DNA of 64,000 nt from Clostridiaceae bacterium (GTDB lineage Bacteria > Bacillota > Clostridia > DSM-8532), in the NCBI GenBank assembly GCA_012840245.1, contig DULR01000075.1:18701-82700 (forward strand). The letters are read 5' to 3'. Within the stretch, counting starts at the first letter, position 1; each line of letters starts with the position of its first letter. The notes beneath the pieces were generated by a model that was not told where the DNA came from, did no database searches, and worked only from the letters and a program-made list of their open reading frames with translations. The translations under genes were made by a program, and so were the position numbers. Of the stretch, positions 9,267-30,817 are shown in pieces.

Positions 9267-9278
9267 CAGCAGAAAAAA

Positions 9279-9313
9279 ACGGAATAACCAAAAGGTTATT
9301 CCGTTTTTATTTT
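9279..9313 (+). terminator. Intrinsic terminator after flgM
   Basis: 11-bp stem ACGGAATAACC/GGTTATTCCGT with loop AAAA, followed by TTTTTATTTT. Confidence 0.8.
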
Positions 9314-9315
9314 AT

Positions 9316-9323
9316 GCCGATAT
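9316..9323 (+). promoter_or_regulatory. Perfect sigma-D -10 box (GCCGATAT) with no good -35
   Basis: Exact GCCGATAT immediately after the flgM terminator. The -35 position reads TATT/TTAT rather than TAAA. Confidence 0.35.
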
Positions 9324-9327
9324 AAAA

Positions 9328-9357
9328 GTATAGGAATTGTTTTCACAATTCCTATAC
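9328..9357 (+). other. Perfect 13-bp hairpin in the flgN leader
   Basis: GTATAGGAATTGT tttc ACAATTCCTATAC. It is followed by the 12-nt palindrome AAAGGATCCTTT (9362-9373). Confidence 0.6.
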
Positions 9358-9417
9358 TTGGAAAGGATCCTTTGGATTCTTTCGCTAATAAATTTATCAG
9401 CCAAGGAGGTGTTTGAA

Positions 9418-9924: not shown

Positions 9925-9939
9925 AGCAGGAGGGTTAAG

Positions 9940-13797: not shown

Positions 13798-14703
13798 ATG
13801 CGGATAACCAACAATATGCTTATCAATAACATGATGCTGAGCCTTTCGGGAAACTTAAGCAGGACTCAGAAATATCAGACCCAATTGGCTACAGGTAAGA
13901 AAATTAGTCTCCCTTCAGACGATCCTATCGTTGCGTCCAAGGCTCTGAAGCTCAGGACCGACGTTGCAGAAATAGCCCAGTACAAGCGAAATACCGATGA
14001 TGCGACAGCATGGATGGATATAACCGAAGCCACCATGAATCATATGACCGAAGTGATCCATAGGTTGAGGGAGATTACAAACCAGGCAGCCAACGGATCA
14101 AACACTCCCGAAGACATTCTGAAAATAAAAGAGGAAGCTGCCCAGCTAAGGGAACAGATGGTTAATCTTGGCAACGCAACATATGCAGGAAGGTATATCT
14201 TCTCGGGTTATAAAACAGATAAACCGCTTCTGAATGATGACGGGACCTTCAATATAGACATAACCAACAGTGAACAGATAAGATTTGAGATAGGAATCGG
14301 CGACGATATCAATATCAATGTGCCGGGAAGCGATTTGTTCGGATCCTCTCCTGCCGAAGCAGCGGGCAACAAAAGCAGGCTGGTGGATACGTTCGACAGG
14401 GTGATCGACGCGATGGAAAACAATCCGGAGCAACTTTCATCTTTGTTGGGAGATATTGACAACGAGCTCAATAATCTGTTGAGAGTAAGAGCAGGCCTTG
14501 GCGCCAGAATGAACAGGGTGGAACTGACGGCAGGCCGTCTCGATGATGACAATGTGAACTTTACCAAGCTGATGAGCAAGAATGAGGATGTAGATATAGC
14601 CGAAGCCATAATGAACCTGATGAATGAAGAAAATGTCTACAGGGCTTCCCTTGCGACAGGCTCCAGAGTTATTCAGCCGTCCCTGGTTGATTTTTTAAGA
14701 TAA
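13798..14703 (+). CDS. flgL: Flagellar hook-associated protein 3
   Basis: MRITNNML..., flagellin-like N and C termini, 301 aa. Position after flgK. Confidence 0.9.
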   Translation: MRITNNMLINNMMLSLSGNLSRTQKYQTQLATGKKISLPSDDPIVASKALKLRTDVAEIAQYKRNTDDATAWMDITEATMNHMTEVIHRLREITNQAANGSNTPEDILKIKEEAAQLREQMVNLGNATYAGRYIFSGYKTDKPLLNDDGTFNIDITNSEQIRFEIGIGDDININVPGSDLFGSSPAEAAGNKSRLVDTFDRVIDAMENNPEQLSSLLGDIDNELNNLLRVRAGLGARMNRVELTAGRLDDDNVNFTKLMSKNEDVDIAEAIMNLMNEENVYRASLATGSRVIQPSLVDFLR

Positions 14704-14729
14704 GATTAATATAACCGGAGGTTATTGTT

Positions 14730-15167
14730 ATGCAGCTTAATACAGTACATTTTGGTGAAATCGAATACAGTGAAGATGAAGTGATATATTTTCCCGAAGG
14801 TATTCCCGGGTTTGAAGATACTAAAAAATATATACTGATCGGGAATGATTCAGGTGATGCGGTTTTCTTCTGGCTTCAGAGCGTCGATGCTCCCGAGTTG
14901 TGTTTTGTAGTGACAGATCCGTTTATGATATATGACGGATACGGGGTCGATGTGGAAGACGAAGATGTTGAACTTCTTGAAATCACCGATCCCAATAAAG
15001 TCCTGACCTTGACAATCGTTATTATTCCTGAGAATATTAATGAGATAAGAGTCAATCTGAAAGCTCCCATACTTATCAACGTCGAAAAGAAGCTTGGGAA
15101 GCAGGTAATACAAAAGAATGACAACTTCCCGGTCAGGTATTATCTCAATAAAAGCAACCAGGTATAA
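14730..15167 (+). CDS. fliW: Flagellar assembly factor FliW
   Basis: FPEGIPGFED and ...NLKAPILIN motifs. 145 aa. Immediately upstream of csrA. Confidence 0.95.
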   Translation: MQLNTVHFGEIEYSEDEVIYFPEGIPGFEDTKKYILIGNDSGDAVFFWLQSVDAPELCFVVTDPFMIYDGYGVDVEDEDVELLEITDPNKVLTLTIVIIPENINEIRVNLKAPILINVEKKLGKQVIQKNDNFPVRYYLNKSNQV

Positions 15168-15201
15168 ACTCCTGCCGGTTAATTGAAAGAGGAGGGATTC
15201 A

Positions 15202-15450
15202 ATGCTCGTACTGACCAGAAAAAAAGGACAGGCTCTCATGATCGGTCATGATATAGAATTGTCGATAATTGATATACAGGGCGATCAGGTCCGTATTGGA
15301 ATAAACGCGCCCAAAAATATAACCATTCATCGTAAAGAAATATATGAGGAGATCCGGAAGGAAAACCTCTCAGCCATTGCCGGCAAAAATACAGATATCC
15401 AGGTGCTTAACGAGAAGTTTAAAAAGAAGGCAGACAGCGCTTCTTCCTGA
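15202..15450 (+). CDS. csrA: Carbon storage regulator CsrA
   Basis: [15 protein letters not shown]...[19 protein letters not shown]. Confidence 0.95.
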
Positions 15451-15594: not shown

Positions 15595-15642
15595 ATATTA
15601 AAAGAGGTTTTTTCTTTTTTAATAAACCAGGAAGTGAAGACT

Positions 15643-18177
15643 ATGCGCAAATATCATAAGAAACAACTGCTGGATCTGGTACAGACAATCAAAGAAGCAA
15701 ATATCATGATAGAACGGTTTATAAGGAATGAAAACTATGAAAGCGCTACAGGGCTTTTGATAGATTGTCATGAGGCTGCAGTCAATATCGGCAAACGTAT
15801 AGAAGAACTTGAAGGAGAAGGAACTATAACTGTCACATACCTTGAAGAGTATTGTGACCTTTTATATCAGACCGGTTTGGCGGTCAACGAGAACAAAAAT
15901 CTGAAAAAAGAACTGGTTCTGCTTCATAATCAGATCATCAAAATAGAGGACAGCCTGATAAACGACATAAAAGCGGACAAGCTTGAAGTCGTATTTCTTC
16001 CCTATAAAGCATCCATGTGGGATTCTCTTGAATCGATATATCTGGTAGCAAAAAATGATCCTCAGTGTGACGTATATTGTGTGCCGATACCGTATTATGA
16101 ACTGACGCCCGACAGAAAGCTCGGCCAAATGTATTATGAGGGTGCTGATTATTACGATAGCAGTATTGAAGTAACCAACTGGAAGGAATATGACATCGAA
16201 GCACGCCATCCTGATATGATTTTCATTCATTATCCATATGATGATATGGCAGTCAATGCGACAGTTCATCCCGATTTTTACAGTAAAAAACTTAGGCAGT
16301 GCTGCGATTGTCTGGCGTATGTGCCGTACTTTGTGGTTTCCGGCAATACGGTTGCAGAGTACAATGCTTGTTTGCCCGGAGTTTTATATGCTGACTGTGT
16401 GTTTGTCCAGTCAGAGCAAATCAGGCAGTCTTATATCCAGCATTATAACAATTTCGCAAGGGAAAACAAAATGGAACAGGTATGCGGCAGGGGAGAAGAC
16501 AAATTTAAAGCGTTTGGCTCACCCAAATTTGACAAGATTATAAACGATAGAGATGCTCACTATGAATTGCCTGATAACTGGAAAAGGCTTGTTTATAGGG
16601 GCAACGGAGAAAAGAAAAAGATAGTCCTTTACAATACTCATATGTTTGCATGGATAAATGGCGGAGAACAGTATTTCCGTAAAATGCAGATCATATTTGA
16701 AACATTTAGAGACCGTGAAGACGCTGTTTTATGGTGGCGTCCCCATCCAAACACCGAACTTAATTTCCGCACGTTCCGTCCAGACTTGCTTGGGAAATAC
16801 ATGAAAACTGTTGAAAGCTATAAAAACGGAGGCTGGGGCATTTATGATGATACGCCGGACCTGCACAGAGCGATTGCTTTCAGCGATGTGTATTATGGTG
16901 ATGGATCCAGCCTGGTTGAGTTATTCAAGGCAGGGGGAAAGCCAGTATATTATCAGGACATCGATTTTCCGGAACTGCTCGATAATTTAAGGTTCTATGT
17001 AACTAACATATTTGAGACAGGCAATAGCTTATATGCTTTAACATTCAACGGGTACATGTTCAGGTTGGAAGACAATTCATTTAAGTATGAAAGTAAAATT
17101 CCGGCAAGCTATGGATATTCATCAGGCTGGAATTACTATTCGCAGGTCACCGAAGACGACAATATATTCTTTATTCCGCACAACGAGAAGCATATCGCCG
17201 TTTACAATGTAAAAACAAAAGACTGCAGAATGTATGCCCTTGATCTGGACGATGAATATCGGATAACTTTTGCAGGTGGGGACAAGAACTTTTTAGAAGG
17301 GATCCTGTATAAAAACAAGTTATTTCTTGTTCCATGGGGTTATCGCAATATAGTAGCGTTCAATACCAATACGAAAGAAACTGAGCATTGCCTGGATCTG
17401 CGACAGGTGTTTGGAGAGAAAACCAATGCCTTGAGTTATGGCTATGCCTGGCTGAATGAAAGCACAGTTTTGCTGGCAAGCATGCATTCAAACGAGGTGC
17501 TTGAGTTCAACCTCGACACTTATGAATATAAGATCCACAGGATAGGACGAGAAGACCAGTCATTCCATATGATATTCAGGTATGGCGATAATTTTTTCCT
17601 GGTAGGCAGACAGCCATTTATGCTCAGATGGAACTATGAAACCGGAGATACCCATATATACGATAAATTGCCTGCTGATTTCGAGTTAGCGAGAAAACTG
17701 GACTGGGTATTCTATGTAAGAAATATGAAACCGTATGGGAACAAGCTGGTACTGCCCGGCGGATATACAAACATGGTGCTGTTGTTTGATCTTGATACCT
17801 GCCAGTTTGAAAAACTCGATGTTTTTGACAAGCTACTGAAAAGCGTACCGGTAACCGGCAGAAATAAGGATGAACCTTTCGTTACCGGTATCCACATGTC
17901 GGGCAGTTTCATGTACTTTGTTCATAAAAATGAAATCCTGTACAGATATGATTTTGATACTCAAACTATAGAAGAGGTTTGCAGCATTATGCCATTTTTT
18001 TCAGATGAACAGCTGGATAAGCTAAATGGAAGTTTTATCAGAAATATGCTGGAAGGAGAGAACTCACAGGTTATGCCAGAACGTTTTAATAAACTGTATG
18101 ACGGCAAGGCCGGTGAAAGAATTTATAGTTATATAAAGACCAGGCTTTTTCAGAAGCCTGCAGCAGATGTGTATTGA
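15643..18177 (+). CDS. TagF-like (CDP-glycerol glycerophosphotransferase family) enzyme fused to a C-terminal 7-repeat beta-propeller-like domain
   Basis: VFLPYKASMWDSLESI, VLYNTH..., WWRPHPN and DVYYGDGSSLVELF..GGKPV resemble TagF-family GT-B motifs. The C-terminal ~330 aa contains seven ~45-aa repeats. ATG 15643 has a better RBS spacing than GTG 15634. Confidence 0.7.
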   Translation: MRKYHKKQLLDLVQTIKEANIMIERFIRNENYESATGLLIDCHEAAVNIGKRIEELEGEGTITVTYLEEYCDLLYQTGLAVNENKNLKKELVLLHNQIIKIEDSLINDIKADKLEVVFLPYKASMWDSLESIYLVAKNDPQCDVYCVPIPYYELTPDRKLGQMYYEGADYYDSSIEVTNWKEYDIEARHPDMIFIHYPYDDMAVNATVHPDFYSKKLRQCCDCLAYVPYFVVSGNTVAEYNACLPGVLYADCVFVQSEQIRQSYIQHYNNFARENKMEQVCGRGEDKFKAFGSPKFDKIINDRDAHYELPDNWKRLVYRGNGEKKKIVLYNTHMFAWINGGEQYFRKMQIIFETFRDREDAVLWWRPHPNTELNFRTFRPDLLGKYMKTVESYKNGGWGIYDDTPDLHRAIAFSDVYYGDGSSLVELFKAGGKPVYYQDIDFPELLDNLRFYVTNIFETGNSLYALTFNGYMFRLEDNSFKYESKIPASYGYSSGWNYYSQVTEDDNIFFIPHNEKHIAVYNVKTKDCRMYALDLDDEYRITFAGGDKNFLEGILYKNKLFLVPWGYRNIVAFNTNTKETEHCLDLRQVFGEKTNALSYGYAWLNESTVLLASMHSNEVLEFNLDTYEYKIHRIGREDQSFHMIFRYGDNFFLVGRQPFMLRWNYETGDTHIYDKLPADFELARKLDWVFYVRNMKPYGNKLVLPGGYTNMVLLFDLDTCQFEKLDVFDKLLKSVPVTGRNKDEPFVTGIHMSGSFMYFVHKNEILYRYDFDTQTIEEVCSIMPFFSDEQLDKLNGSFIRNMLEGENSQVMPERFNKLYDGKAGERIYSYIKTRLFQKPAADVY

Positions 18178-18240
18178 AAGATACAGTAGCATTTTTCAGG
18201 ATATGATCCTCCATATATTTGATTTGAAAGAAGGGGTAAT

Positions 18241-18966
18241 ATGAACATTGCATTGATACTGGCCGGAGGGCTCGGCCTGCGTATGAACCAGGAAAGTGAA
18301 CCACCGAAACAGTTTTTTGTCTTGGGGGATAAACCGGTGTTGATACATACGCTGGAAAGATTTGAAAGGCATCCTGAAATCGATGCAATTTGTGTCGTAT
18401 GCCTTCAAACATGGGAGAATTATCTTGAGGGCTTAGTTAACCATTTTGGTATTAAAAAGGTACGCTGGATAGTGACTGGCGGTGACTGCAGACAAGCCTC
18501 GGTCTTTAATGGCCTTTGTACCCTGGAAAAAGACTGTTCTCCGGAGGATATAATTATCGTCCATGATGGAGTAAGACCATTTATCACATCAGAAATAATA
18601 AGCCAGAATATAGAAACTGCAATCCGGTATGGAAATGCTATGACAAGCATGCAGTGTACCGATACGCTGATTACATCTCATGACAGAAAAACCGCGGAAT
18701 ATGCCATGGACCGGGATAGCAGCTACTCGGTGCAGACACCACAGACATATAGTCTCGGTTATGGGCTGAAACATTATCGCCGCGCATACGAGATGGGAAA
18801 AACAAGTATGATAAATTGCTGTGAGTTGTTTATTGCACTTGGGGAAAAAGTATACATGGTAAACGGAAGAAAAACAAATGTTAAACTTACGACACGGGAT
18901 GATATAGCTTATCTTAAATTTCTGAATTCAATTTTTCATGACGGAGATGAAGACCATATAGAATAA
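18241..18966 (+). CDS. IspD/TarI-family sugar-phosphate (alditol-phosphate) cytidylyltransferase
   Basis: MNIALILAGGLGLRM....PKQF N-terminus. 241 aa. Confidence 0.85.
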   Translation: MNIALILAGGLGLRMNQESEPPKQFFVLGDKPVLIHTLERFERHPEIDAICVVCLQTWENYLEGLVNHFGIKKVRWIVTGGDCRQASVFNGLCTLEKDCSPEDIIIVHDGVRPFITSEIISQNIETAIRYGNAMTSMQCTDTLITSHDRKTAEYAMDRDSSYSVQTPQTYSLGYGLKHYRRAYEMGKTSMINCCELFIALGEKVYMVNGRKTNVKLTTRDDIAYLKFLNSIFHDGDEDHIE

Positions 18967-18984
18967 AATTGATCGGAGCTGATT

Positions 18985-20034
18985 ATGAAAACCTGTCATA
19001 TCTTTGATGAAGATATCGAATATCTGGCCAGGCTGTCCCTATGGAAAAAACTATCCGGGAAAACGCTTATGATAACCGGAGCAACCGGTATGCTCGGTTC
19101 TTACCTGGCATTTGCTGCGAATAAAGCCAACCTCATTGGAGGCTACGGAATAAGGCTGGTATTGTCAGGCCGTAACAGCCAGAAAGCAAAACAGTTGTTT
19201 GATAATATCGAGTGCAGGATCCTGCTGCAGGACATTCGTGAGCCGCTGGACGTCGACGGGCCGCTTCACTATATAATACATACAGCAGGACCCGTAGGTC
19301 CTGCTGTTTTCGAAAAAAATCCGCTGGAAGTCATCTCAGTCAATGTTGAAGGCACGATGTCACTGCTTCGCAGTGCGATACAGCACGATTGCCTTGGTGT
19401 TGTTTTTGCTTCCACCCACGAGGTTTACGGGAAGGCCGAAGGTGAACAGAAAGAATCATCAATATTGGGTGCGGTCGATCCATATGATCCCCGCTCAAGC
19501 TATATACTGGCGAAACAGACAGCGGAGAATATTTTGGCTTGTTTTTCCAGCACATATGGCTTAAAATCAGCGTCAGCACGTCTGTCACGACTGTACGGCC
19601 CACTGATGAACATGGACAGCGGTCTGTTCATTTGCAGTTTCATTAATGATGCCTTACATAACATGCCTGTGCATGTCAGGGGAGAGCTTAACCAATTGAG
19701 ACCCCTTTGCTATATTGCAGATGCGGCCGAAGCCATGCTGCGAATCCTGCTGAATGCTGACAGAGGCGAGGCTTACAATGTGCAGGGAAAAGAGCTGCCT
19801 ACAATTGGTGACATTGCATTAATGGTCTCTGAAATTGGGAACTGCGGAGTAAAGTTCGATAAACCTGAAACAGGGAATAAACCTGCGACCGGATACTGGC
19901 TGAACACAGACAGGATTGAAAGACTTGACTGGCGGCAGCGTACCGGGCTTTTGGAAGGACTGCGGCGTACAATGAATTTTTTTGCGGGATCGGAGACAGA
20001 AAATGAAGAAAAGGAAAAGGATCAAAGAAATTGA
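18985..20034 (+). CDS. NAD(P)-dependent epimerase/dehydratase-family (extended SDR) enzyme
   Basis: ITGATGMLGSYL glycine motif and an SSYILAK catalytic YxxxK motif. Confidence 0.85.
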   Translation: MKTCHIFDEDIEYLARLSLWKKLSGKTLMITGATGMLGSYLAFAANKANLIGGYGIRLVLSGRNSQKAKQLFDNIECRILLQDIREPLDVDGPLHYIIHTAGPVGPAVFEKNPLEVISVNVEGTMSLLRSAIQHDCLGVVFASTHEVYGKAEGEQKESSILGAVDPYDPRSSYILAKQTAENILACFSSTYGLKSASARLSRLYGPLMNMDSGLFICSFINDALHNMPVHVRGELNQLRPLCYIADAAEAMLRILLNADRGEAYNVQGKELPTIGDIALMVSEIGNCGVKFDKPETGNKPATGYWLNTDRIERLDWRQRTGLLEGLRRTMNFFAGSETENEEKEKDQRN

Positions 20035-20866
20035 ATTTACGCCTGAAATGCTTAGAAGCCTGCAGCTCATCCAGCTTGAGATCCTGGAGGAGCTTAACAG
20101 GATCTGTGTTAAACACGATATCAAATATTCTCTGGACGGGGGTACGTTACTCGGTGCAGTACGCCACGGTGGATTCATACCCTGGGATGACGATATTGAC
20201 GTAATCATGCTGAGAGAAGAGTACGAGAAATTTTTCGAGGTCTGCAAAACCGAACTGGACAAGGAGCGGTTTTTTTTACAGGAACACAGAACAGATCCTT
20301 ATTACAGGGTAGGTTATACAAGGATCAGGCGGAAAAATACAGTTTATGTACGGGCTGGACAGGAGAACATGAAACATGTTACCGGTATCCTGATAGATAT
20401 TTTTGTCCTGGATAATTCTCCGACAACCTTTTTTATGAAATATATACACCGTGCGCTGTGCTTCTTTTTCCGCAAGATTTTATGGTCAGCTACCGGAAAG
20501 ATCGTTTCTGAAAGTTTATTATTACGAGGGATATATGCTGTGCTTTCATTGATACCGGCAAGATTTGCTTTCCGGGGATTTGACGCCCTGGCGAAGTATT
20601 ACAATAAAAAACCCTCTACCCTTGTCAAGCATTATGCCATGACATACCCCATGCCAAAGGTGAACGGGTTCGGAACACCGAGGGATCTGATGGATGATTA
20701 TACATGGATTGAGTTTGAAGGAAAGAGGTTTATGGCGGTGAAAGATTACCATCGCTACCTGACTTTATTGTATGGCGATTATATGAAGCTTCCGCCCAAA
20801 GAAAAGCAAAAACCGCATATTCATCTTTCAGCTTTTGAACCTATCAGGGACGGGACACTTGAATAA
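20003..20866 (+). CDS. LicD-family phosphotransferase
   Basis: LDGGTLLGAVRHGGFIPWDDDIDVIM is the LicD signature. The start at 20003 has GGAGA upstream. Overlaps the SDR gene by 32 nt. Confidence 0.85.
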   Translation: MKKRKRIKEIEFTPEMLRSLQLIQLEILEELNRICVKHDIKYSLDGGTLLGAVRHGGFIPWDDDIDVIMLREEYEKFFEVCKTELDKERFFLQEHRTDPYYRVGYTRIRRKNTVYVRAGQENMKHVTGILIDIFVLDNSPTTFFMKYIHRALCFFFRKILWSATGKIVSESLLLRGIYAVLSLIPARFAFRGFDALAKYYNKKPSTLVKHYAMTYPMPKVNGFGTPRDLMDDYTWIEFEGKRFMAVKDYHRYLTLLYGDYMKLPPKEKQKPHIHLSAFEPIRDGTLE

Positions 20867-20893: not shown

Positions 20894-22198
20894 ATGGATC
20901 TACCATGCAATTCTCTTGTAAGTGTCATAATACCGGTATACAATGTTGAAAAATATCTGCAGCGTTGCATTAATTCGGTAATTAATCAGACTTACACCAA
21001 TATTGAAATAATTCTTGTTGATGATGGTTCAACAGACGCCTGCCCCCAAATATGTGATGAGTATGCCAGAATGGATTCGAGAATAACGGTGATTCACCAC
21101 AGCCATAACCAGGGTTTGTATGCGGCTCGAAATTCAGGCATAGATGTGGCCAGGGGCGAATGGCTTTGCTTCGTTGACAGCGATGACTTTGTTCATCCCC
21201 GATTTGTTGAAGGATTGCTTAGAGCGGCCGTGCGTAATGGTTGCCTGACTGCAAGGTGCAAACGTAAATTTACATACACTGATGAGATAGATATAAATCT
21301 GCCTGAGGAAGAGTATAAGGTGTTTAACTGGTTCGAATATGCAGCATTTTTAGACAGTACCCCGGGCTATGGTATTTATAATGTCTGGTCCAGCATATAT
21401 CACAGATCACTTTTTAAAAATCTCAGGTTTCCGCCATACCGGCATACGGAGGATGCACCGGTAAGTACCCAGATAATATGGCTTGCACAAGATAAAAAGT
21501 TCGCTGTTACAAATCAGACCTTATACTATTATTATCAAAGACATATAAGCATTATGAACGGCCGTGCCAACCTGAATGTCCTTAACAGATATAAAGCTTA
21601 TGATTGGATTTTAGACTTTTGGATCAGCAAAAATGAGTTTGAAATGGCGGATATTTATTTCAAGATGTACTTTACTTATCTTGTGCTTGATTATACCAAT
21701 CTATGCAGGGATTTACCGCAGGATCATCATAAATATTCTCATTTATACAGCCTGATTGAAAAGAATGCTCATAAGGCACAGATGTTGGATTTAAAGGTAA
21801 CGAAAATACCTTCTGTATCCCGTGAAATTTGGGAGCAAATTTCAGATGGACAAGATAAGTTTATTCTCTACAGCTTCAACAACAGAGGCAGGGAGATCAT
21901 GCCATGGCTCATTTATTTTGACGTCGACTTAGTTGAGATTTGGGATAAAGATGCAGATAAGTATGTCGATGAAGGAGAGCTGCCCATTCCTTTGACAAAA
22001 CCTCATGATTCAGTTGAACCCAAGGATAATATGACTGTAATAATCGCAACTGAGGATGAAAAGCAATCTTTAATAATGAAACGGGAATTGAGACAAATGG
22101 GCTACAGCCGGTTCATTTCCTGCGAAAACATTTTTGGAGCCATAAAATATGCAAAATATAAAAAATTCTTGCCTTTTTTAATAAACGACACTATGTAA
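20894..22198 (+). CDS. Family 2 glycosyltransferase with a C-terminal Rossmann-like module
   Basis: VSVIIPVYNVEKYLQRCINS...ILVDDGSTD...FVDSDD. The C-terminal module starts at KFILYSF. Confidence 0.9.
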   Translation: MDLPCNSLVSVIIPVYNVEKYLQRCINSVINQTYTNIEIILVDDGSTDACPQICDEYARMDSRITVIHHSHNQGLYAARNSGIDVARGEWLCFVDSDDFVHPRFVEGLLRAAVRNGCLTARCKRKFTYTDEIDINLPEEEYKVFNWFEYAAFLDSTPGYGIYNVWSSIYHRSLFKNLRFPPYRHTEDAPVSTQIIWLAQDKKFAVTNQTLYYYYQRHISIMNGRANLNVLNRYKAYDWILDFWISKNEFEMADIYFKMYFTYLVLDYTNLCRDLPQDHHKYSHLYSLIEKNAHKAQMLDLKVTKIPSVSREIWEQISDGQDKFILYSFNNRGREIMPWLIYFDVDLVEIWDKDADKYVDEGELPIPLTKPHDSVEPKDNMTVIIATEDEKQSLIMKRELRQMGYSRFISCENIFGAIKYAKYKKFLPFLINDTM

Positions 22199-22223
22199 AA
22201 TATTTTATATTTCGGGAGGCAAT

Positions 22224-23402
22224 ATGATTTTACGAACATGCGGTGTGGATGAGTTTATAAAACGAATAGAAGGTAAGGAACTTGTATGCTTCGGATCAGG
22301 CAGACTGCTTACTGAATTATGTTACGAGTTTAAGGACCATTCGATAGAAAGACATATTACTTATATTGTTGACAACAACTCTACGCTGTGGGGAACCATA
22401 AAACGGATAGGCAATGTGGAAATAGCAATTGAAAAACCAGAAATGCTATATTCGACCGCTACTGAAAATACAGTCGTTTTAATTACATGCGGAGGATTAT
22501 ACGGTCTGGAAGTATTCGAAGATCTAAGCGGCAGGTTTGATTCTATGGACATTGATTGCTATTTTGCAAGATTCATAAGGGGTATTCAGTCTACTATCAC
22601 AGCATATAACGCAGCTAAACCTCCTGAAGATTTTCGGGCCAATCCTGTGCCTGTGATTCCCAAAAAGATACATTATTGCTGGGTTGGAGGCAGCCCGATT
22701 CCTGAAAAAAACATGAAATGTATTGAAAGCTGGAAACGGTTCTGCCCGGACTATGAAATAATCGAATGGAATGAGAGTAATTATGACTTTTCGAAAAACA
22801 GGTACATGAAGGAAGCATATGAAGCCGGCAAATGGGGGTTTGTACCAGATTACGCCAGGCTCGATATCATATACAACCATGGAGGTATATACCTTGATAC
22901 TGATGTTGAGCTAATAAAACCATTGGATGAACTGCTCTACAACAATGCCTACTGTGGGTTTGAGAACATACAGTTGGTCAATCTTGGACTGGGTTTCGGC
23001 GGTATTGCCGGCTTCAGTCTATTTAAGAAAATGCGTGATTCATACAATGATATTTCCTTTATTAATCAAGACGGTTCATTGAACCTGGTTCCTTCTCCGT
23101 TTCTTCAGACTGATTTCTTAACAAACTATGGATTGAAGAAAAATGGCGGTTTTCAGGTAATAGAAGGTCTGTCTGTATATCCTGTTGAGTATTTTGCACC
23201 ATTAAGCCTGAGTACAAGACAGCTTGTAAAAACTGAAAATACATATTCCATACACTGGTTCGACGGTTCATGGCTTGATAAAGCTCAGCGCGAAAGCAGT
23301 GATGTTTACGAAAGTCTGTACCGTCAAGCTCTGATCAATGAATCGGAAATATCCAAAAACACACTTACAATAACAAGAGGTGAATATTTTGTCCGTTTAT
23401 GA
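22224..23402 (+). CDS. DXD-motif sugar-binding glycosyltransferase (GT32/Gly_transf_sug-like) with an N-terminal Rossmann-like module
   Basis: IPKKIHYCWVGG...PDYARLDIIYNHGGIYLDTDVE. The N-terminal module starts at ELVCFGSGRL. Confidence 0.8.
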   Translation: MILRTCGVDEFIKRIEGKELVCFGSGRLLTELCYEFKDHSIERHITYIVDNNSTLWGTIKRIGNVEIAIEKPEMLYSTATENTVVLITCGGLYGLEVFEDLSGRFDSMDIDCYFARFIRGIQSTITAYNAAKPPEDFRANPVPVIPKKIHYCWVGGSPIPEKNMKCIESWKRFCPDYEIIEWNESNYDFSKNRYMKEAYEAGKWGFVPDYARLDIIYNHGGIYLDTDVELIKPLDELLYNNAYCGFENIQLVNLGLGFGGIAGFSLFKKMRDSYNDISFINQDGSLNLVPSPFLQTDFLTNYGLKKNGGFQVIEGLSVYPVEYFAPLSLSTRQLVKTENTYSIHWFDGSWLDKAQRESSDVYESLYRQALINESEISKNTLTITRGEYFVRL

Positions 23403-24720
23403 GGATGTATTAGTAAGTATCATCATACCGGTATATAATGTCGGGGATTATCTCGAACGCTGCATCGATTCCATAAGGCAGCAGACCCATAAAAAAATTG
23501 AGATCATTTTGGTGGATGATGGTTCCACTGATAATAGTCCACGAATTTGTGACTATTATGCTAAAGAGGATTCACGGATAATAGTGATCCACCAGGAAAA
23601 TCGTGGCGCTGGGCCTGCCAGGAATGCCGGTATCGACATTGCACATGGAGAATGGATCTGCTTTGTTGACAGCGATGATTATATAAGTCCGCTTTTTGTT
23701 GAAAGGCTTCTGAAAATAGCAGTTGATAATGATTGCCTAACTGCACAATGCCGATTCAAAAGGGTTCTGGAAGACAGTATGGATGAAAATGAAAAGCTGC
23801 AGCCTGAAATTAAAGTAATGGACTGGAGGAATTATTTTATCTACGTTTACAAAAATATGTGCAGGAATCCGATAGGAAGCTCCGGGCATACGCCATTCGG
23901 CCCTGTGATAAATATTTACCATAAATCCTTGTTCGACAGTATAAGGTTTCCATCTTTGCGGATTTCGGAAGATATAGAGATTATGCCCAGAATAATCTAT
24001 GCTGCTGGTAAAAAAAACATCGCAATAACCGATGAAATACTATATTATTACTTTCAACGACCAGGAAGTTCAACCAGGTCAGAAGCAAATCTTTCCCTTG
24101 TGGACAGGTACTACGCTATAAACTCGGCAGTAAACTTTTTGAGGGAAAAGAAAGAAAACGAAGTATGCAGGCTTTTTAATAAGACGCTTTTTGATTGCAT
24201 GGTGAGAGACTATTTGATTCTTTGTGCTGAATTGCCGGCAGAACACCACAAATATGGTTTCCTGAAAGATGAAATATACAGGTATCTGGGCACTTTCGAG
24301 GGATATTGCAGTGATCTTATTGTTCTTCGGCCTGATGCGAAAAAAATATGGGAGAATGTTTTGCTAAACATAAAGGACTGTGTCATATATGGTTATGGGG
24401 ATTGGGGTAAAGAATTCACTTATTGGTTCAGGTATTTTGAAATCAATATTATTGAGATCTGGGACCAGAAAGCCGAAACCGGCGGTTGTGCGGAAGGAAT
24501 CCCATTCAGGAAAGCCCACGACGGGCTTGAAAAAAACACATGTATCATAGTTGCCATCGCTGACAGGTATGTATCATTGGAAGTAGCCTGCAAACTTCGG
24601 GAACTGGGCTACACCAATATTTATGATTTTACCTTGATTGAATCAGGGTTGAGATATGGAAAATATTCCAGATTTATGCCGTCGATAATAGAGAATTACA
24701 GGAGGTTGTTCAATGAATAA
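23380..24720 (+). CDS. Family 2 glycosyltransferase, paralog of 20894-22198, with a C-terminal Rossmann-like module
   Basis: VSIIIPVYNVGDYLERCIDS...ILVDDGSTD...FVDSDD. The start is uncertain (GTG 23380 or TTG 23389). Overlaps the previous gene. Confidence 0.9.
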   Translation: MNILSVYEDVLVSIIIPVYNVGDYLERCIDSIRQQTHKKIEIILVDDGSTDNSPRICDYYAKEDSRIIVIHQENRGAGPARNAGIDIAHGEWICFVDSDDYISPLFVERLLKIAVDNDCLTAQCRFKRVLEDSMDENEKLQPEIKVMDWRNYFIYVYKNMCRNPIGSSGHTPFGPVINIYHKSLFDSIRFPSLRISEDIEIMPRIIYAAGKKNIAITDEILYYYFQRPGSSTRSEANLSLVDRYYAINSAVNFLREKKENEVCRLFNKTLFDCMVRDYLILCAELPAEHHKYGFLKDEIYRYLGTFEGYCSDLIVLRPDAKKIWENVLLNIKDCVIYGYGDWGKEFTYWFRYFEINIIEIWDQKAETGGCAEGIPFRKAHDGLEKNTCIIVAIADRYVSLEVACKLRELGYTNIYDFTLIESGLRYGKYSRFMPSIIENYRRLFNE

Positions 24721-27079
24721 CCCTTTGGTGTCATGGCTTATGCCAGTATATAACAGTGAGAAATTCCTGCGCAGGGCATTGGACTCTATGCTGAATCAAA
24801 CATACCAGGATTTTGAGATAATAATCGTACTGGAAAACTCCTGTACAGACAAGTCTAAGGAAATTTGCGAGGAATACGCAGCCAGAGATAACAGGATAAA
24901 AATACATTATAAAGTCGGTGGTTTGGGCATCGCCGAATCCCTGAACCAGGGACTGAAGGTTTGCGGAGGTAAATACATAGCGAGGATGGATGCGGATGAT
25001 TACAGCTATCCTGAGCGGCTTGAAAAACAGGTGTCTTATTTGGAAAGTAACCCTGAAGTGGGAATACTTGGTGCAAAAGCCCGGATTATCAATGGACAGC
25101 GTGTATATGATACCTATGAGGATGGAGTTCCTGATAGTGAGGAAATCCGTGTAAGACTATTGTTTGAGGATTGCATCCTGCATCCTACTGTGGTTTTGAG
25201 GGCTGAAATATTCAATAAAGAAGGCTTGGAGTACCCAACAGACAATAAAGCTGAGGATTATGCCCTTTGGGCCAGCTTAATTTCAAAAGTCAAATTCTCG
25301 ATATTGCCGGATGTTCTTCTGGATTACTATATTCATGGAGAAAATGTCTGTTCAGTTAATTTTGACAAAATACGCACTGACAGCGCGAAAGTATCAAGGC
25401 AAGCTATTCACAGAGAGTTGGATATTGATACCTGTAATTACCTAGATAGAGTATTCGGATGGAGAACATATGATCCCATGCCTTCGGATATAAGCGGATT
25501 TCTGTTTGAAAGTTTGGATCTTATAGATACGGTTCGTAGGGCAAACGATGCACAGAAAAAGTTTGATGTCGCGGTCATGGAAAAGGTCCTTGAGAATGAG
25601 TGGAAAAAAGCATTGAACACCATTGCATATTATGGAGAAATAGACTGTTTGAAGCAACCGGTCCGCAAGTTAAACAAAGAGAAAATAGGAAAAGTATTTT
25701 GCAAATTAGAGGAACATATATCAAGTGACAGAAAAAGGAAAGTCATATTATACGGTACAGGCAGGTACAGTAATGCTTTGGTCCAAAACATGGGGGATGA
25801 TGATTATCCATTTGAAATAATCGCAGTTTGTGACTCGGATGCTCGAAAGCAGGGAACAGTCTTTCATGGATTTCAGGTTATTGCTCCGAATCAAATATCA
25901 AGTTACGATTATGATTTTATAAGCATTGCTACTCCCTTGTACGCTGAAGAAATAAAAGATTCCTTGCTGAACAACTATAACGTAAAGCCGGATAAAATCC
26001 TTGATTTGCCTCTCTGCACAATAGCAACACATTACCGAAGAAAGCTGAGCTTAGAAAGATATAAGCATTTGTGCGGTGAGAGAAAAGCTTATCTTTTTTG
26101 TGCGCCTGATTACGGAAACCTCGGAGACCATGCTATAGCCGTTGGGGAACACTATTTTTTCCAAAAAAATTTTGGTATTGATATAGAAGAGGTGCCAATA
26201 AACCGGTTTGATGAAAATATCTCAATTGTAATGGAACATATAAAGCCAGAGGATATCGTTCTTGTCACAGGCGGTGGATTTTTAGGCTCACTATGGGAAC
26301 AAGGGGAATTTCAGGCGAGAAAAGTCGTATCACTGTTTCCTGACAACCCTGTTTTGATATTGCCTCAAACGCTTTACTGGGAGGCTTCGCATGAATGGGA
26401 TATTGAAAAAGCACGAACGCGCCAGGCGTATGAGAACCATAAAAAACTGGTGCTTTGTGCACGGGATGTTGAGACATACCGTATCATGATTGAAGCTTAC
26501 CCGAAATGCAAAGTAATTACTGCCCCAGATATGGTTCTTGCATATGGCTGGAAGGAGTTCATAAACAGGGATACTGAGCGTGAAAGTGCTTTGCTGTGCC
26601 TCAAAACGGATAAAGAATCTATACTTACCGACAGGGATTGGGAGAGACTGAAGGAAATCGCAGCGGAAGCCTGTGGTACTGCTAGCGTCTGCAGTACGAA
26701 CCTTGATGAAATGATATCCGAAAAAAGAAGGGATGTCTTTCTGAGAATGAAACTTGACGAGTTCAGCCGAGCCAGGCTGGTTATAACAGACAGGCTCCAC
26801 GGTTTGCTGTTTTCCGTCATCACGGGTACTCCCTGTGTTGCCATGAATAACTGTAACCATAAATTAAGAGCGACTTTTGAGTGGGTAAAGCATATACCGA
26901 ATCTGCGATTTGCGGATAGTATCGATAAAGTTAAGCACTTGGCGAAAGAAGTTTTATCGGTAGGTCAGGTGGAATATTGCGCATCAGATTTCAGGGATCA
27001 TTTCAAAGAGCTTGAAATGACAGTTGAATTACTAATAGACAATAAGGGTCAGGAAGCAAAAAATGTCAGGAGATACTAA
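24713..27079 (+). CDS. Fusion protein: GT2 glycosyltransferase, Rossmann-like module, polysaccharide pyruvyl transferase domain
   Basis: N-terminus VSWLMPVYNSEKFL...RMDADD (GT2). The middle has KVILYGTGRY. The C-terminus has PDYGNLGDHAI...LVTGGG...ITDRLHG...GTPCV, typical of PS pyruvyl transferases. Confidence 0.85.
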   Translation: MNNPLVSWLMPVYNSEKFLRRALDSMLNQTYQDFEIIIVLENSCTDKSKEICEEYAARDNRIKIHYKVGGLGIAESLNQGLKVCGGKYIARMDADDYSYPERLEKQVSYLESNPEVGILGAKARIINGQRVYDTYEDGVPDSEEIRVRLLFEDCILHPTVVLRAEIFNKEGLEYPTDNKAEDYALWASLISKVKFSILPDVLLDYYIHGENVCSVNFDKIRTDSAKVSRQAIHRELDIDTCNYLDRVFGWRTYDPMPSDISGFLFESLDLIDTVRRANDAQKKFDVAVMEKVLENEWKKALNTIAYYGEIDCLKQPVRKLNKEKIGKVFCKLEEHISSDRKRKVILYGTGRYSNALVQNMGDDDYPFEIIAVCDSDARKQGTVFHGFQVIAPNQISSYDYDFISIATPLYAEEIKDSLLNNYNVKPDKILDLPLCTIATHYRRKLSLERYKHLCGERKAYLFCAPDYGNLGDHAIAVGEHYFFQKNFGIDIEEVPINRFDENISIVMEHIKPEDIVLVTGGGFLGSLWEQGEFQARKVVSLFPDNPVLILPQTLYWEASHEWDIEKARTRQAYENHKKLVLCARDVETYRIMIEAYPKCKVITAPDMVLAYGWKEFINRDTERESALLCLKTDKESILTDRDWERLKEIAAEACGTASVCSTNLDEMISEKRRDVFLRMKLDEFSRARLVITDRLHGLLFSVITGTPCVAMNNCNHKLRATFEWVKHIPNLRFADSIDKVKHLAKEVLSVGQVEYCASDFRDHFKELEMTVELLIDNKGQEAKNVRRY

Positions 27080-27092
27080 TGGGGGATAATTC

Positions 27093-28454
27093 ATGACTAA
27101 ATTTTTTGAGTGTTTAGTTCCAGTTACATCGTGTAATTTGAAATGTGAATATTGTTATGTAATTCAAGAAAAGCGCAGATATAATGAAATAAAAAACCTG
27201 AAATATCCAGTGGAATGGATTGCTAAAGCATTGAGAAAAGAGCGATTAGGAGGCGTCTGCTATTTTAGTCTATGTGGTGAGGGAGAAACCTTATTGCCAG
27301 ATTATATTATTGAACTCACAGAGCAACTGTTAAAGTCAGGACATTATGTAAACATAACTACAAATGGGACTATCTCGCATAGAATCACAGAATTGATTGG
27401 GCTTAGTCCCGATTTGCATAATAGATTACATATTTCCTTTTCATATCATTATGATGAGTTAGTACGGACAAAAAATTTATATAAATTCTGGGATAATGTC
27501 CGAAGAGTAAAAGATAATAATATTTCATTCGTAGTACAGTGTAATTTATGTGATTCATATATCGAGAAAATCGATGAAATTAAATCTGATTGTATCAGTA
27601 ATATTGGTACTTTGCCGCAATTTGTCGCAACACGTGATGAATCTCAGCCGTACTATAAAATATTGACATCAGATTTAAACAAATATATTATGGTTGGTAA
27701 GTCTACAGGTTCTGATTTATTTGATTTTACCATAGACAATATAAATAAAAAGAGGTGCGATTTTTGCTATGCAGGCGCTTGGTCTTATAGACTATTGCTT
27801 GAAAGCGGAGATTTAAAGCGATGCTATGCTGAACCAGCATTCTACAATATATTTCAGGATATTAATGAGCCTATTCCTCAAGAGCCAATAGGATTCAATT
27901 GCAAAAGTGATTTCTGTGTAAACGCAAGCCACTTTTTAACACTGGGAATAATGCCTGATGTTGTCACTCCAACATATGATGAGCTCCGTAAGATGAAAAA
28001 TATAAACAATATCAGCAAAAACATGGATAGTTTTTTCAGGCATAAATTATATGAGGAGAATAAGCAAGTACATCATAAAGTTCAAAACATTTATCAAATC
28101 AGTAAACTATCGGACTATGCTAAATTACTAAGCAGACCGATTATAATTTATGGGGCAGGAAGGCTTGGCAATAATTTGGTGAAGAAGATGAATGAATGTG
28201 GTATAAAATATGAAATTATTTGTGATTCGAATAAAACCAGGCAAGTTAATGGAGTCGTCCCGGTTGAGGTTATGTTGGATAAATTATCTCAGTTTGACAG
28301 TCCTGTAATAGCTGTTGCGATAATGGATGACAAAGTAGTTTCAGAGGTGTTTTACACCCTTGAAAACACCTCTGCTGAGTTATGTACCTATTATACCATT
28401 ATGATGGCGATTAAATATACAAATGGATATGTTCACCCAAAAGCCATATCATGA
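27093..28454 (+). CDS. Radical SAM enzyme with an auxiliary Cys-rich region and a C-terminal Rossmann-like module
   Basis: CNLKCEYCY (CxxxCxxC). Later cysteines are CDFCY...RCY...FNCKSDFC. The C-terminal module starts at IIIYGAGRLG. The gene is markedly AT-rich. Confidence 0.85.
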   Translation: MTKFFECLVPVTSCNLKCEYCYVIQEKRRYNEIKNLKYPVEWIAKALRKERLGGVCYFSLCGEGETLLPDYIIELTEQLLKSGHYVNITTNGTISHRITELIGLSPDLHNRLHISFSYHYDELVRTKNLYKFWDNVRRVKDNNISFVVQCNLCDSYIEKIDEIKSDCISNIGTLPQFVATRDESQPYYKILTSDLNKYIMVGKSTGSDLFDFTIDNINKKRCDFCYAGAWSYRLLLESGDLKRCYAEPAFYNIFQDINEPIPQEPIGFNCKSDFCVNASHFLTLGIMPDVVTPTYDELRKMKNINNISKNMDSFFRHKLYEENKQVHHKVQNIYQISKLSDYAKLLSRPIIIYGAGRLGNNLVKKMNECGIKYEIICDSNKTRQVNGVVPVEVMLDKLSQFDSPVIAVAIMDDKVVSEVFYTLENTSAELCTYYTIMMAIKYTNGYVHPKAIS

Positions 28455-28501: not shown

Positions 28502-29761
28502 TCAGTCATGGGAATTTTTCTCATACTGTTCATAGTAATAATTAGCAAGTACGCTGTTGCCCAGGTCAGCCATTGCTGTATTAAGAAAAACGAGATCAGT
28601 TTTATCTTTTTTATCATATATGCTGTTCAGGAATAATATTATTTCAACCGGCTCCTGATCCTTGATCAAGGCATAGAGTCCTTTGATGGCATCAAAATTG
28701 TGCTTGTTGATTTTCAGGGATTCAAAATAGTTTTCAAGTGCTTTTACAGAGTCTCCCGTCTTTTTGTACATCTCTGCCATATAGTAATAAACATACTCAA
28801 GCCTTGCCGGGAAGTTATTATTCAGCAGCAGCTTAAATTTTTTATTATATTCAAGAGCGTTACGATAGCTTTCAATGGCTGCGATATAGTCACCCTGCTC
28901 TCTTCTTGCGTTGCCTACTGCATACCAGATCTCAGGGTGTGTGGGATAATGGCTCACAGCTTCATTGATGTATTTCTCGATCTCATCGGACGTATATTTT
29001 TCTTTTAACTTAAGCATGTTGTCGATAATGAAAACATAAGGCTGATATGCCATGATTGTTTTATGGAAAGCGGGTTCTTTGAGGGCAAGAAGAGCGTATT
29101 CTATAGCTTCCTCAGAGTTCCCCAGATTATTGTTCATCGAGCTCATATAATAATATGTAAGGTCAGTGATGTTGTTTTTGGCGATCTCTTCCTTCATTAT
29201 CGCAAGATTACGTTTGACCTTTTCGGGCAATATAACAGATGAATATCCGGTATGGTAAATAACTAAGGGGTAATCAGTTATGTTGGCTGCATATAGCGTA
29301 TTTTCCCTATTAAGCGGTTGCTCATGTACAGCACCGTAATAGCGGATCCTGTTATGTCCTCTGAATGTTCGGATAGTCGGATTTTCCGCAATTATTCTTC
29401 CGTTTAAGCCTTCTGTATGGATTATTTTATAAAGAACAGCATCATATGACTTGTTATTTATACTGTTTAATATACGGATCAGATTCCTGGGAGTATTTTC
29501 AGCAAAATACTCATCGGCATCCAGGAATATAATCCAGTCTCCTGTCGCTTTATCCAAGGCATAATTCTTCGCGTTGCTGAAGTTATTGTCCCAATCGTAA
29601 AAATAAACTTTTGCGCCAAGGCTTTCAGCTATTTCAACTGTGTTATCGGTTGAACCGGTATCCACCACGACAATCTCATTTGTGATACTTTTTATGCTTT
29701 CCAGACATCGTCTGATATTTTCGGATTCGTTTTTGGTTATGACACATGCTGATATTTTCAT
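28502..29761 (-). CDS. GT2 glycosyltransferase fused to TPR repeats (GmaR-like architecture)
   Basis: ISACVITKNE...VVVDTGSTD...FLDADE N-terminal GT2. The C-terminal half is TPR-like (EAIEYALLAL..., GDYIAAIESYRNALEYN, GDSVKALENYFESLKIN). ATG 29761 follows AAGGAG. Lies downstream of fliC on the same strand. Confidence 0.85.
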   Translation of the reverse strand: MKISACVITKNESENIRRCLESIKSITNEIVVVDTGSTDNTVEIAESLGAKVYFYDWDNNFSNAKNYALDKATGDWIIFLDADEYFAENTPRNLIRILNSINNKSYDAVLYKIIHTEGLNGRIIAENPTIRTFRGHNRIRYYGAVHEQPLNRENTLYAANITDYPLVIYHTGYSSVILPEKVKRNLAIMKEEIAKNNITDLTYYYMSSMNNNLGNSEEAIEYALLALKEPAFHKTIMAYQPYVFIIDNMLKLKEKYTSDEIEKYINEAVSHYPTHPEIWYAVGNARREQGDYIAAIESYRNALEYNKKFKLLLNNNFPARLEYVYYYMAEMYKKTGDSVKALENYFESLKINKHNFDAIKGLYALIKDQEPVEIILFLNSIYDKKDKTDLVFLNTAMADLGNSVLANYYYEQYEKNSHD

Positions 29762-29923
29762 AGCTTTCTCCTTCACTCTTCGGATAAAAAAAGAAAAAAT
29801 GACACATTAAAAAGCGTCGAATATACAGTCCTTTTGTTTTATTTTATCATATCATATGTTGTAATTAAATAATCACAGGTTATGCTTCGTTTATGAAAAA
29901 TCAGGAGATTAAGAAAAATGGGA

Positions 29924-29977: not shown

Positions 29978-30817
29978 TTATTGGAGCAACTGTAATACTC
30001 CCTGAGGCTGCTGATTTGCCTGAGCCAACATTGCTGTTGCTGCCTGCTGCAGGATGCTGTTCTTGGTGAATTCCATCATTTCCTTGGCCATGTCAACGTC
30101 ACGGATACGGGATTCTGAAGCCGTCAGGTTCTCAGCGGTTGTACCCAGATTGTTGATGGTGTGCTCGAGCCTGTTCTGGATAGCACCAAGTTTTGCACGT
30201 TCAGACGAAACCTTAATTATAGCCTTGTCGATGGTCTCGATTGCTACGTTTGCACTTGCCTGTGTCGACAGATTGATCGGTGAAGTGCCAGAGGTGCTTA
30301 CAGCCAATGTTTCAGCATTCATATTGCCTATTGTCAGTGTTACTGCCTGATCCTTGTTAGCGCCGACCTGGAACTTCAATGCGCAAGCTGCAGTGCTGAA
30401 TTTGCCGTTCAACAGCTTCTTGGTGTTGAACTCGGTATTATCGGATATCCTGTCGATTTCCGCAGCAAGCTGCTCGATTTCCTTCTGGAGTTCACCACGA
30501 TCATCGTCTGTGTTGGTGTCAGATGCGGATTGTACGGCAAGCTCTCTCATTCTCTGCAGAATGCTGTGGGTTTCGTTGAGCGCACCTTCTGCTGTCTGGA
30601 TAAGAGAGATAGCGTCCTGAGCATTTCTTTCTGCCTGGTTCAGACCACGGATCTGTCCTCTCATTTTTTCAGAGATGGCAAGACCTGCTGCGTCGTCGCC
30701 TGCACGGTTGATTCTGTAACCTGAAGACAGCTTCTCAAGAGATTTGCTTCCTGCATTGTTGTTGATCGTCAACTGACGATAAGTGTTTAATGATGCGATG
30801 TTGTGATTAATTCTCAT
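29978..30817 (-). CDS. fliC: Flagellin (short, 279 aa)
   Basis: MRINHNIASLNTYRQL...GYRINRAGDDAAGLAISEKMRGQIRGL N-terminus and ...ILQQAATAMLAQANQQPQGVLQLLQ C-terminus. Confidence 0.95.
   Translation of the reverse strand: MRINHNIASLNTYRQLTINNNAGSKSLEKLSSGYRINRAGDDAAGLAISEKMRGQIRGLNQAERNAQDAISLIQTAEGALNETHSILQRMRELAVQSASDTNTDDDRGELQKEIEQLAAEIDRISDNTEFNTKKLLNGKFSTAACALKFQVGANKDQAVTLTIGNMNAETLAVSTSGTSPINLSTQASANVAIETIDKAIIKVSSERAKLGAIQNRLEHTINNLGTTAENLTASESRIRDVDMAKEMMEFTKNSILQQAATAMLAQANQQPQGVLQLLQ

Follow-up and report, generated by a model that had tools for sequence, protein, structure and literature searches.

The window analysed here is a 64-kb stretch (64,000 nucleotides) of contig DULR01000075.1 from a Clostridiaceae bacterium. 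It corresponds to a metagenome contig of a biogas fermenter, since ENA and Logan contigs encode protein D (see below) identically; two of its proteins bear the NCBI name 'Clostridiaceae bacterium'. Within it lies a glycosylation island, between fliW-csrA and a flagellin gene. Five consecutive genes of the island, here named A to E, encode three glycosyltransferases, a glycosyltransferase-pyruvyl transferase fusion and a radical SAM enzyme, and each of the proteins contains one copy of a small domain that is referred to as the module. This domain is small, Rossmann-like and of the alpha/beta type, and its five copies are homologous. The genes, with protein lengths in amino acids (aa), are:

20894..22198, + strand: gene A, GT2 glycosyltransferase of 434 aa, module C-terminal (Pfam Glycos_transf_2 at aa 10-174)
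22224..23402, + strand: gene B, GT32-like glycosyltransferase of 392 aa, module N-terminal (Pfam Gly_transf_sug at aa 160-241)
23380..24720, + strand: gene C, GT2 glycosyltransferase of 446 aa, module C-terminal (Pfam Glycos_transf_2 at aa 13-139)
24713..27079, + strand: gene D, fusion of GT2, module and polysaccharide pyruvyl transferase, 788 aa (Glycos_transf_2 at aa 7-136, PS_pyruv_trans at aa 469-714)
27093..28454, + strand: gene E, radical SAM enzyme of 453 aa, module C-terminal (Pfam Radical_SAM at aa 10-145)

The module has a core of ~95 aa and a folded unit of ~125 aa. Its boundaries were taken from a hidden Markov model (HMM) profile that contains all five segments; they fix the position of each copy and are not independent evidence for it. 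In nucleotides (nt), the copies lie as follows:

21848..22132, + strand: module copy A, aa 319-413 (HMM boundaries and family alignment)
22266..22568, + strand: module copy B, aa 15-115 (folded unit aa 1-135)
24367..24639, + strand: module copy C, aa 330-420 (folded unit reaches the C-terminus)
25730..25975, + strand: module copy D, aa 340-421 (discrete insert at ~aa 337-433)
28131..28403, + strand: module copy E, aa 347-437 (HMM boundaries)

An earlier note on this DNA, made from the letters of the sequence, had placed five recurring segments in these genes, and its positions agree with the HMM boundaries within a few codons. The note had also called the attached catalytic domains unrelated, and this is the case: they comprise GT-A/GT2, GT32, a GT2-pyruvyl transferase fusion and radical SAM. 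The proteins A and C are full-length paralogues with 41% identity over 437 aa (BLAST), and therefore share one architecture. Five copies of the module thus stand as claimed, but the independent fusion architectures are four, not five. No sixth copy is present among the 345 six-frame open reading frames (ORFs) of the window.

The motif is not complete in every copy. All five retain the Asp that follows strand 2. Copy C (YGYGDWG...EIWD) and copy E (YGAGRLG...ICDS) have the complete motif, while copies B and D lack its third glycine. The Gly loop of copy A is degenerate and reads YSFNNRG, with the first two motif glycines gone and the Asp retained (EIWD). The orthologues of copy A in the family alignment have YGYGxxG. 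The view that copy A is not a module for want of GxGxxG was ruled out, since these orthologues keep the motif and the remaining domain aligns.

The subfamily of A and C (nt 24367-24717 and 21848-22195 of the window) has extra invariant residues that are not found in the other subfamilies. These are a Trp before the Asp (EIWD), a His ~18 residues further on (K.H), a GY pair, and the C-terminal tail YAKY..FLPF. The radical SAM copy E shares this tail in part, as AIKYTNGY.

The public NCBI version of protein B has 249 aa and is 100% identical, but begins only at an internal Met, so that the N-terminal module is missing entirely. The long form begins with the ATG at 22224, which is preceded at 7 nt by the ribosome-binding site GGGAGG; its N-terminal 135 aa are conserved in >100 homologues. 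Judging from these sequence features, the public gene call for B is probably truncated.

The five genes are packed tightly, with a gap of 25 nt between A and B, an overlap of 8 nt between C and D, and a gap of 13 nt between D and E. The overlap of B and C is ~14-23 nt, depending on the choice of the C start codon. This close packing suggests that genes A-E form one operon with translational coupling.

Homology and fold of the module

Taken in pairs, the five segments are no more than 14-30% identical. BLAST matches the D and E segments (34% over 65 aa, E-value 5e-6) and gives a weak match between B and D. As hhalign of two-sequence profiles gave no decisive result, deeper family alignments were built instead. 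They were cut from full-length homologues of C and B, and comprise 30 C-terminal regions of the A/C type (alignment A3) and 44 N-terminal regions of the B type (alignment A4). In hhalign, B aligns with D/E at a probability of 96% (E-value 5e-9, 94 columns), A/C with B at 83% (E-value 9e-6), and A/C with D/E at 63.5% (E-value 7e-5). The three subfamilies fall into a single register over 75-94 columns, which includes the Gly loop, the Asp, an 'IP' turn and a hydrophobic strand.

The HMMs of the subfamilies were also run against all 345 six-frame ORFs of the whole window. The top non-self match of the A/C model is the E module (26 bits, E-value 1.4e-7). The B model finds D (20.7 bits, E-value 7.5e-6) and E (13 bits) as its top non-self matches, and the D/E model finds B (11.9 bits). 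All non-self matches above noise are confined to the other module proteins, at the coordinates of the module. As a control, the best of 1380 reversed or shuffled decoy sequences score 4-8 bits, and the link from A/C to D by HMM alone (6.3 bits) is at this decoy level. The island also encodes an SDR-type Rossmann enzyme (18985-20034), which the module HMMs leave unmatched. The possibility that the matches are due to any Rossmann fold was ruled out by this unmatched enzyme and by the decoy scores. The subfamilies are bridged by P0099 and P0067, two relatives of C whose C-terminal region can be aligned with the A/C module but scores with the D/E model; one of the two carries a precomputed PF22674 annotation. 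Together, the in-register hhalign results and the scan of the window bear out the claim that the five segments are one recurring module.

The opposite view holds that there is no single module, and that unrelated, generic Rossmann-like stretches share GxGxxG...D by convergence or chance. The low pairwise identities, the link between A/C and D at the level of decoys, and the single-sequence Pfam matches, which scatter across several Rossmann families and are insignificant, would be expected in that case. Against it stand the profile-profile links in register over 75-94 columns, the cross-matches specific to module proteins among the 345 ORFs with the SDR unmatched, and the intermediates P0099 and P0067 that match both subfamilies. 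The equal length and topology of the two structural models given below and the recurrence of the module in sister loci also contradict it, and this view is essentially refuted.

AlphaFold2 (AF2) models were obtained for the N-terminal unit of B (135 aa, mean pLDDT 96.3) and the C-terminal unit of C (129 aa, mean pLDDT 94.6). The two models have equal length and topology, in the order strand, helix, strand, beta-hairpin, strand, helix and terminal helices. With 4-5 core strands and a beta-hairpin in ~95-125 aa, the modelled module is not a full six-stranded dehydrogenase Rossmann fold. The module proteins of the window have no oxidoreductase partner and are not classical dinucleotide-binding dehydrogenases.

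Foldseek superposes the C-module model on the N-domains of PerB, PglD (2vhe), VioB (7txp) and PglB-ATD (4m99) at 2.2-3.5 Å, with PerB, PglD and VioB at 2.2-3.0 Å; the match to PerB (4eaa) is at 2.3 Å over 88 columns with 22% identity. The same model also matches Rex and 2g6t_A (E-value 9.5e-3, probability 1.00, TMq 0.48, 105 columns). For the B-module model, Rex is the top match (2vt2, E-value 1.2e-4). Aspartate-semialdehyde dehydrogenase N-domains and the PglD-like Pcryo_0637 (7l7y) are matched as well, and 3nkl, the isolated N-domain of a WbpM-like enzyme, is matched at 3.4-3.7 Å. The structure 2g6t is not among the top 50 Foldseek matches of the B-module model.

Searches of the PDB sequences with the A/C and B family profiles gave nothing significant. 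A merged superfamily profile of 14 sequences (A5) finds Rex (E-value 3.8e-5; 5zz5 and 2vt2, 83 columns), 3nkl (E-value 3e-4) and VioB (E-value 6e-3), with weaker matches to the KTN domains of TrkA/KtrA. The alignments of A5 to the solved structures keep register at the GAG, D and IP motifs. When the FkbM and TylF fusions of sister islands were searched against the PDB, the matches (2py6, 4cdz) covered the methyltransferase parts alone, and the packing of the module was not revealed.

Relation to known families

The module belongs to the mini-Rossmann class of PglD_N, C2185-like_N and CoA_binding (Rex). This domain class is already known and partly annotated in databases. The new features are the divergent subfamilies, the promiscuous fusion to glycan enzymes, the 5-9 copies per locus and the tandem arrays.

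The earlier note had pointed to a likeness to the N-domain of NeuD/PglD-type enzymes, and this likeness holds. The model TIGR03570, for the N-terminal region of NeuD/PglB/VioB, matches copy E with an E-value of 4e-4 (20 bits, under its cut-off of 160.8), the superpositions of the C-module model point the same way, and so does the in-register alignment to VioB. Similar to the N-domains of PglD, PerB, VioB, PglB-ATD and NeuD, the module is a small three-layer alpha/beta domain of about that size that sits on sugar-modifying enzymes. It also has the same order of elements, namely a Gly loop after strand 1, an Asp that ends strand 2, then 'K.G...IP(V/I)' and 'hhIAI'. In contrast to the PglD-type enzymes, no left-handed beta-helix acyltransferase follows the module, and Hexapep matches none of the five window proteins. 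Where PglD has the second Asp of its 'DD' pair, the module has K, Q, N or S. The module also differs by its place at either end of a protein or in its interior, on GT-A, GT32, pyruvyl transferase and radical SAM enzymes, and NDP (nucleoside diphosphate) binding by the module is presumed. The PglD_N model (PF17836) scores E at 15.7 bits (E-value 0.022) and C at 12.8 bits, and does not reach its cut-off of 23.4.

The second relative is CAC2185 (2g6t) with the family PF22674, C2185-like_N, which is the top Pfam match of copy D and the fold match of the C-module model noted above. The 'C2185' in the family name is probably CAC2185, an uncharacterised protein of Clostridium acetobutylicum, judging from the name and the PDB title. 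No paper on C2185 or 2G6T in this sense was found in the literature. Pfam annotates PF22674 on GT2, GT4, TylF, Glyphos_transf and radical SAM proteins of the sister islands, and the precomputed annotation lists it for D and several of these proteins. The class is thus catalogued, and copy D comes near to PF22674, with 25.8 bits (E-value 1.4e-5) for the segment and 22.0 bits for the full protein against a gathering cut-off of 27 bits that is not reached. Copies A, B, C and E gave no match in the PF22674 scan.

Scanned one by one, the 30 A/C-type and 44 B-type homologues give no match to PF22674 or PglD_N at an E-value <0.01, and only a few weak ones to Methyltransf_14 and 2-Hacid_dh_C. As single sequences, the A, B and C segments have no above-threshold Pfam or TIGRFAM match. 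The Pfam matches of single copies scatter over ThiF, NAD_binding_7, TrkA_N and CoA_binding at insignificant E-values.

Rex (CoA_binding, PF02629) is the top PDB sequence-profile match and the top Foldseek match of the B module. The CoA_binding matches of single copies lie under the Pfam cut-off, with E-values of 0.039 for D and 0.14 for E. Rex differs by its N-terminal winged-helix DNA-binding domain, its NAD(H) binding and its role as a transcription factor, whereas the modules have no helix-turn-helix and lie inside glycan enzymes. A further relative is the N-domain of WbpM/PglF/CapD (3nkl) and the CoA_binding_3-type domain of sugar transferases, which phmmer finds with D at an E-value of 0.011. 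The 3nkl-type domain is an accessory on polysaccharide-pathway enzymes and has, to our knowledge, no established role; it differs in its partner enzymes, and the sequence similarity is weak. The module also resembles the C-terminal domain of sugar C-methyltransferases such as TcaB9 (Methyltransf_14), with an E-value of 0.005 for D and matches in five of the 44 B-type homologues. In TcaB9 this domain helps to hold the dTDP-sugar. Here the module scores are under threshold, and the enzyme context is different.

Spread, mobility and island context

The A5 profile was searched against 1.84 billion representative proteins and finds 10,520 proteins at an E-value <=1e-3 and 381 at <=1e-10. Many top matches contain 2-4 tandem copies of the module with a period of ~145 aa; the domains joined to such arrays (P0242-P0263) are GT2, GT4, radical SAM or cytidylyltransferase. 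At least one protein, P0244 (423 aa), seems to be built of nothing but three modules. A Pfam census of the best 80 of the A5 matches names the module as PglD_N in 20 proteins (E-value <=1e-4), as C2185-like_N in 11, as Methyltransf_14 in 11 and as CoA_binding in 8. The partners in these 80 comprise GT2 (20 proteins), GT4 (9 proteins), FkbM, TylF and other methyltransferases, WbsX, GT-D, LicD, cytidylyltransferase and GT32. Glyphos_transf, radical SAM, TagF-like enzymes and Maf are further partners in sister loci. The association of the module with glycan-pathway enzymes is near-exclusive.

Seven sister loci have several module ORFs each, as counted by HMM scans, with the partner domains taken from Pfam tables:

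L004, metagenome: 5 module ORFs
L005, metagenome: 6 module ORFs
L012, Lachnospiraceae bacterium KM106-2: 9 module ORFs in 21 kb
L013, Pseudobutyrivibrio: 8 module ORFs
L014, Candidatus Clostridium helianthi: 5 module ORFs
L015, metagenome: 5 module ORFs
L016, metagenome: 8 module ORFs

At least two of the seven lie beside flagellar genes, as flagellin or fliD-fliS genes flank L014 and L015. A locus search with full-length B found six genome loci with similarity in the GT32 domain only, and the module is present in none of the six. The homologue search with the D+E module alignment gave a single fragment; this search is word-indexed and insensitive for a query of 130 aa.

The claim that the module moves as a unit is supported by gene D. 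Its orthologue in Pseudobutyrivibrio (L013 11296-13326, 676 aa) is collinear on both sides with 44% identity, and lacks exactly the segment of D at aa ~337-433. L015 encodes the GT2 (286 aa, 9125-9985) and the pyruvyl transferase (308 aa, 12369-13295) in two distinct genes, neither of which has the module. D thus represents a lineage-specific fusion that carries the module as an insert. Generic modules often have their nearest relatives on other enzyme classes; the one closest to that of D is on a plain GT2, and next come modules attached to a methyltransferase and to a TagF-like enzyme. Unlike the generic ones, modules of the A/C type and the B type co-evolve with their glycosyltransferase partner. 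The module is a non-catalytic, optional and mobile accessory domain that is gained or lost as a unit.

The head and the flagellin end of the island contain genes without the module:

15634..20866, + strand: island head with the genes of an 847-aa protein, an IspD-like cytidylyltransferase, an SDR and LicD, all without the module
15634-18177, + strand: 847-aa protein of unknown family, at the island head, without the module
18985-20034: SDR Rossmann enzyme of the island head
28502..29776, - strand: GT2+TPR protein without the module (Pfam GT2 and TPR; TIGR04195 SunS family, E-value 3e-31)
29978..30817, - strand: flagellin gene (Flagellin_N and Flagellin_C annotated on the identical contig)

The GT2+TPR protein is likely the initiating flagellin glycosyltransferase. 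It is the sole island glycosyltransferase without the module, and its match to the SunS-family peptide S-glycosyltransferase model TIGR04195 (E-value 3e-31) is under the cut-off of the model. A GT2+TPR gene is also present in L004 and L005. In the window, flaG, fliD and fliS come after the GT2+TPR and flagellin genes.

The 847-aa ORF has no match in Pfam, NCBIfam or the PDB sequences. A counterpart heads the island of Lachnospiraceae KM106-2 (L012 2379-4964, 32% identity, E-value 2e-104), and the counterparts that head L014 and L015 have 866 aa and 883 aa. The C-terminal half is repeat-like or beta-propeller-like in appearance. Its WRPHP motif may resemble that of TagF-type glycerophosphotransferases.

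Function and meaning of the module

The conserved residues of the module were counted over 221 copies in 143 representative proteins. The glycines G11, G13 and G16 are conserved in 98%, 92% and 81% of the copies, and the Asp D36 in 95%. In Pcryo_0637 and PglD, the corresponding N-domain is a platform for UDP (PMC8040287). The ribose hydroxyls, the alpha-phosphate and the uracil are contacted in Pcryo_0637 by the loop Ser11 (PglD Ser13) and by Asp40/41 (PglD Asp35/36) (PMC8040287). The module conserves the Gly loop and the Asp, which are the NDP-contacting elements of PglD-type enzymes, and nucleotide binding is thus favoured. On balance, we consider it somewhat probable that the module is an accessory nucleotide-binding domain. 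Its Gly-rich loop, which follows strand 1, and the Asp that ends strand 2 would grip a nucleotide moiety and keep it close to the attached catalytic domain. We infer such binding, its ligand and its purpose from the characterised relatives; the candidate ligands would be a nucleotide-activated donor, a nucleotide-linked acceptor, or released NDP or NMP (nucleoside monophosphate).

Several points weigh against nucleotide binding. The GT-A and GT32 domains have their own site for the donor nucleotide. The pyruvyl transferase, the methyltransferases and the radical SAM enzyme use phosphoenolpyruvate or S-adenosylmethionine and no NDP donor, so that for these partners the ligand would need to be an NDP-linked acceptor. 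Such an acceptor conflicts with the accepted stepwise glycosylation of flagellin on the protein (PMC12645811). The module is absent from the D counterpart in L013 and from the separate GT2 and pyruvyl transferase in L015, and only one of the three glycines is left in copy A. A single nucleotide handle can hardly explain 2-4 tandem copies. The top PDB sequence match is Rex, where the Rossmann domain is also the dimer interface.

The main rival reading is a protein-protein docking or oligomerisation domain, which would assemble the island enzymes into a cytoplasmic glycosylation complex. The copies would pair mutually in the style of Rex or KTN/RCK domains, or would dock on the GT2+TPR protein, flagellin or FliS, and nucleotide binding would be vestigial or regulatory. 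We regard this role as unlikely. Most tailoring enzymes of an island carry one copy whatever their chemistry (five here, and 5-9 in the seven sister loci), the tandem proteins with 2-4 copies resemble multivalent hubs, and an orthologue does without the module. The top PDB sequence matches are Rex dimers, with weaker matches to TrkA/KtrA KTN domains, and copy A is retained though its Gly loop is gone. In the accepted view, flagellin glycans grow step by step on the protein in the cytoplasm (PMC12645811), where co-localisation would help. On the other hand, even very divergent copies conserve the GxGxxG loop and the Asp at 92-98%, a pattern typical of ligand sites and not of interfaces. PglD, PerB and VioB, the closest characterised homologues, use the domain for NDP binding and oligomerise via a different domain. 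The conserved nucleotide-contact residues favour ligand binding, while the tandem arrays and the dispensability of the module keep an assembly role in play.

Binding of the acceptor glycan is an improbable third role. The Gly loop would recognise a common feature of the glycan, for example the phosphodiester or polyol-phosphate of a teichoic-acid-like chain, and tandem copies would grip the polymer. The islands encode IspD and other cytidylyltransferases, LicD, Glyphos_transf, Stealth and GDPD, which implies phosphodiester-linked substituents, and tandem arrays do exist. Gly-rich Rossmann loops bind phosphates. The conserved Asp, however, binds the ribose diol in the homologues and not phosphate, and no precedent for polymer binding by this domain class was found. 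L004, L005 and L016 centre on heptose and Kdo pathways, not on polyol phosphates.

A broader proposal, which is speculative and in our view quite unlikely, is that the module serves as a common 'handle' through which the cytoplasmic assembly of the flagellin glycan is organised, as (a) part of a nucleotide carrier system or (b) a docking system; this judgement covers both versions taken together. In version (a), the oligosaccharide would be built on a nucleotide carrier, the tailoring enzymes would grip the nucleotide as PglD grips UDP, and the glycan would be transferred en bloc to flagellin. In version (b), the modules would pair and the multi-module proteins would serve as hubs, with a logic like that of cohesin-dockerin or polyketide synthase docking domains.

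For annotation, two subfamilies are gained that are invisible to current Pfam models, the C-terminal type of GT2 enzymes and the N-terminal type of GT32 enzymes. In L014, the module forms the N-terminus of a clostridial Maf/MptE-like protein (14094-15431, Candidatus Clostridium helianthi; superfamily HMM, E-value 4e-7). The N-terminal 'degenerated Rossmann-like' domain of Maf is of unclear function (PMC11339370). The module of the L014 protein may be a lead on this domain in the flagellin glycosyltransferases of the Maf type; an equivalence with the solved Maf structure from Magnetospirillum would be conjectural, as that structure is absent from the sequence and fold matches.

If the module merely binds a nucleotide, the result is a useful yet ordinary domain annotation. 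The presence of one small domain on most tailoring enzymes, together with the tandem arrays, points to a common organising principle for clostridial flagellin O-glycan islands, which encode many such enzymes, by the binding of a substrate handle or by the assembly of enzymes. If true, version (a) or (b) of the handle would overturn or substantially extend the picture of independent, stepwise glycosylation on the protein.

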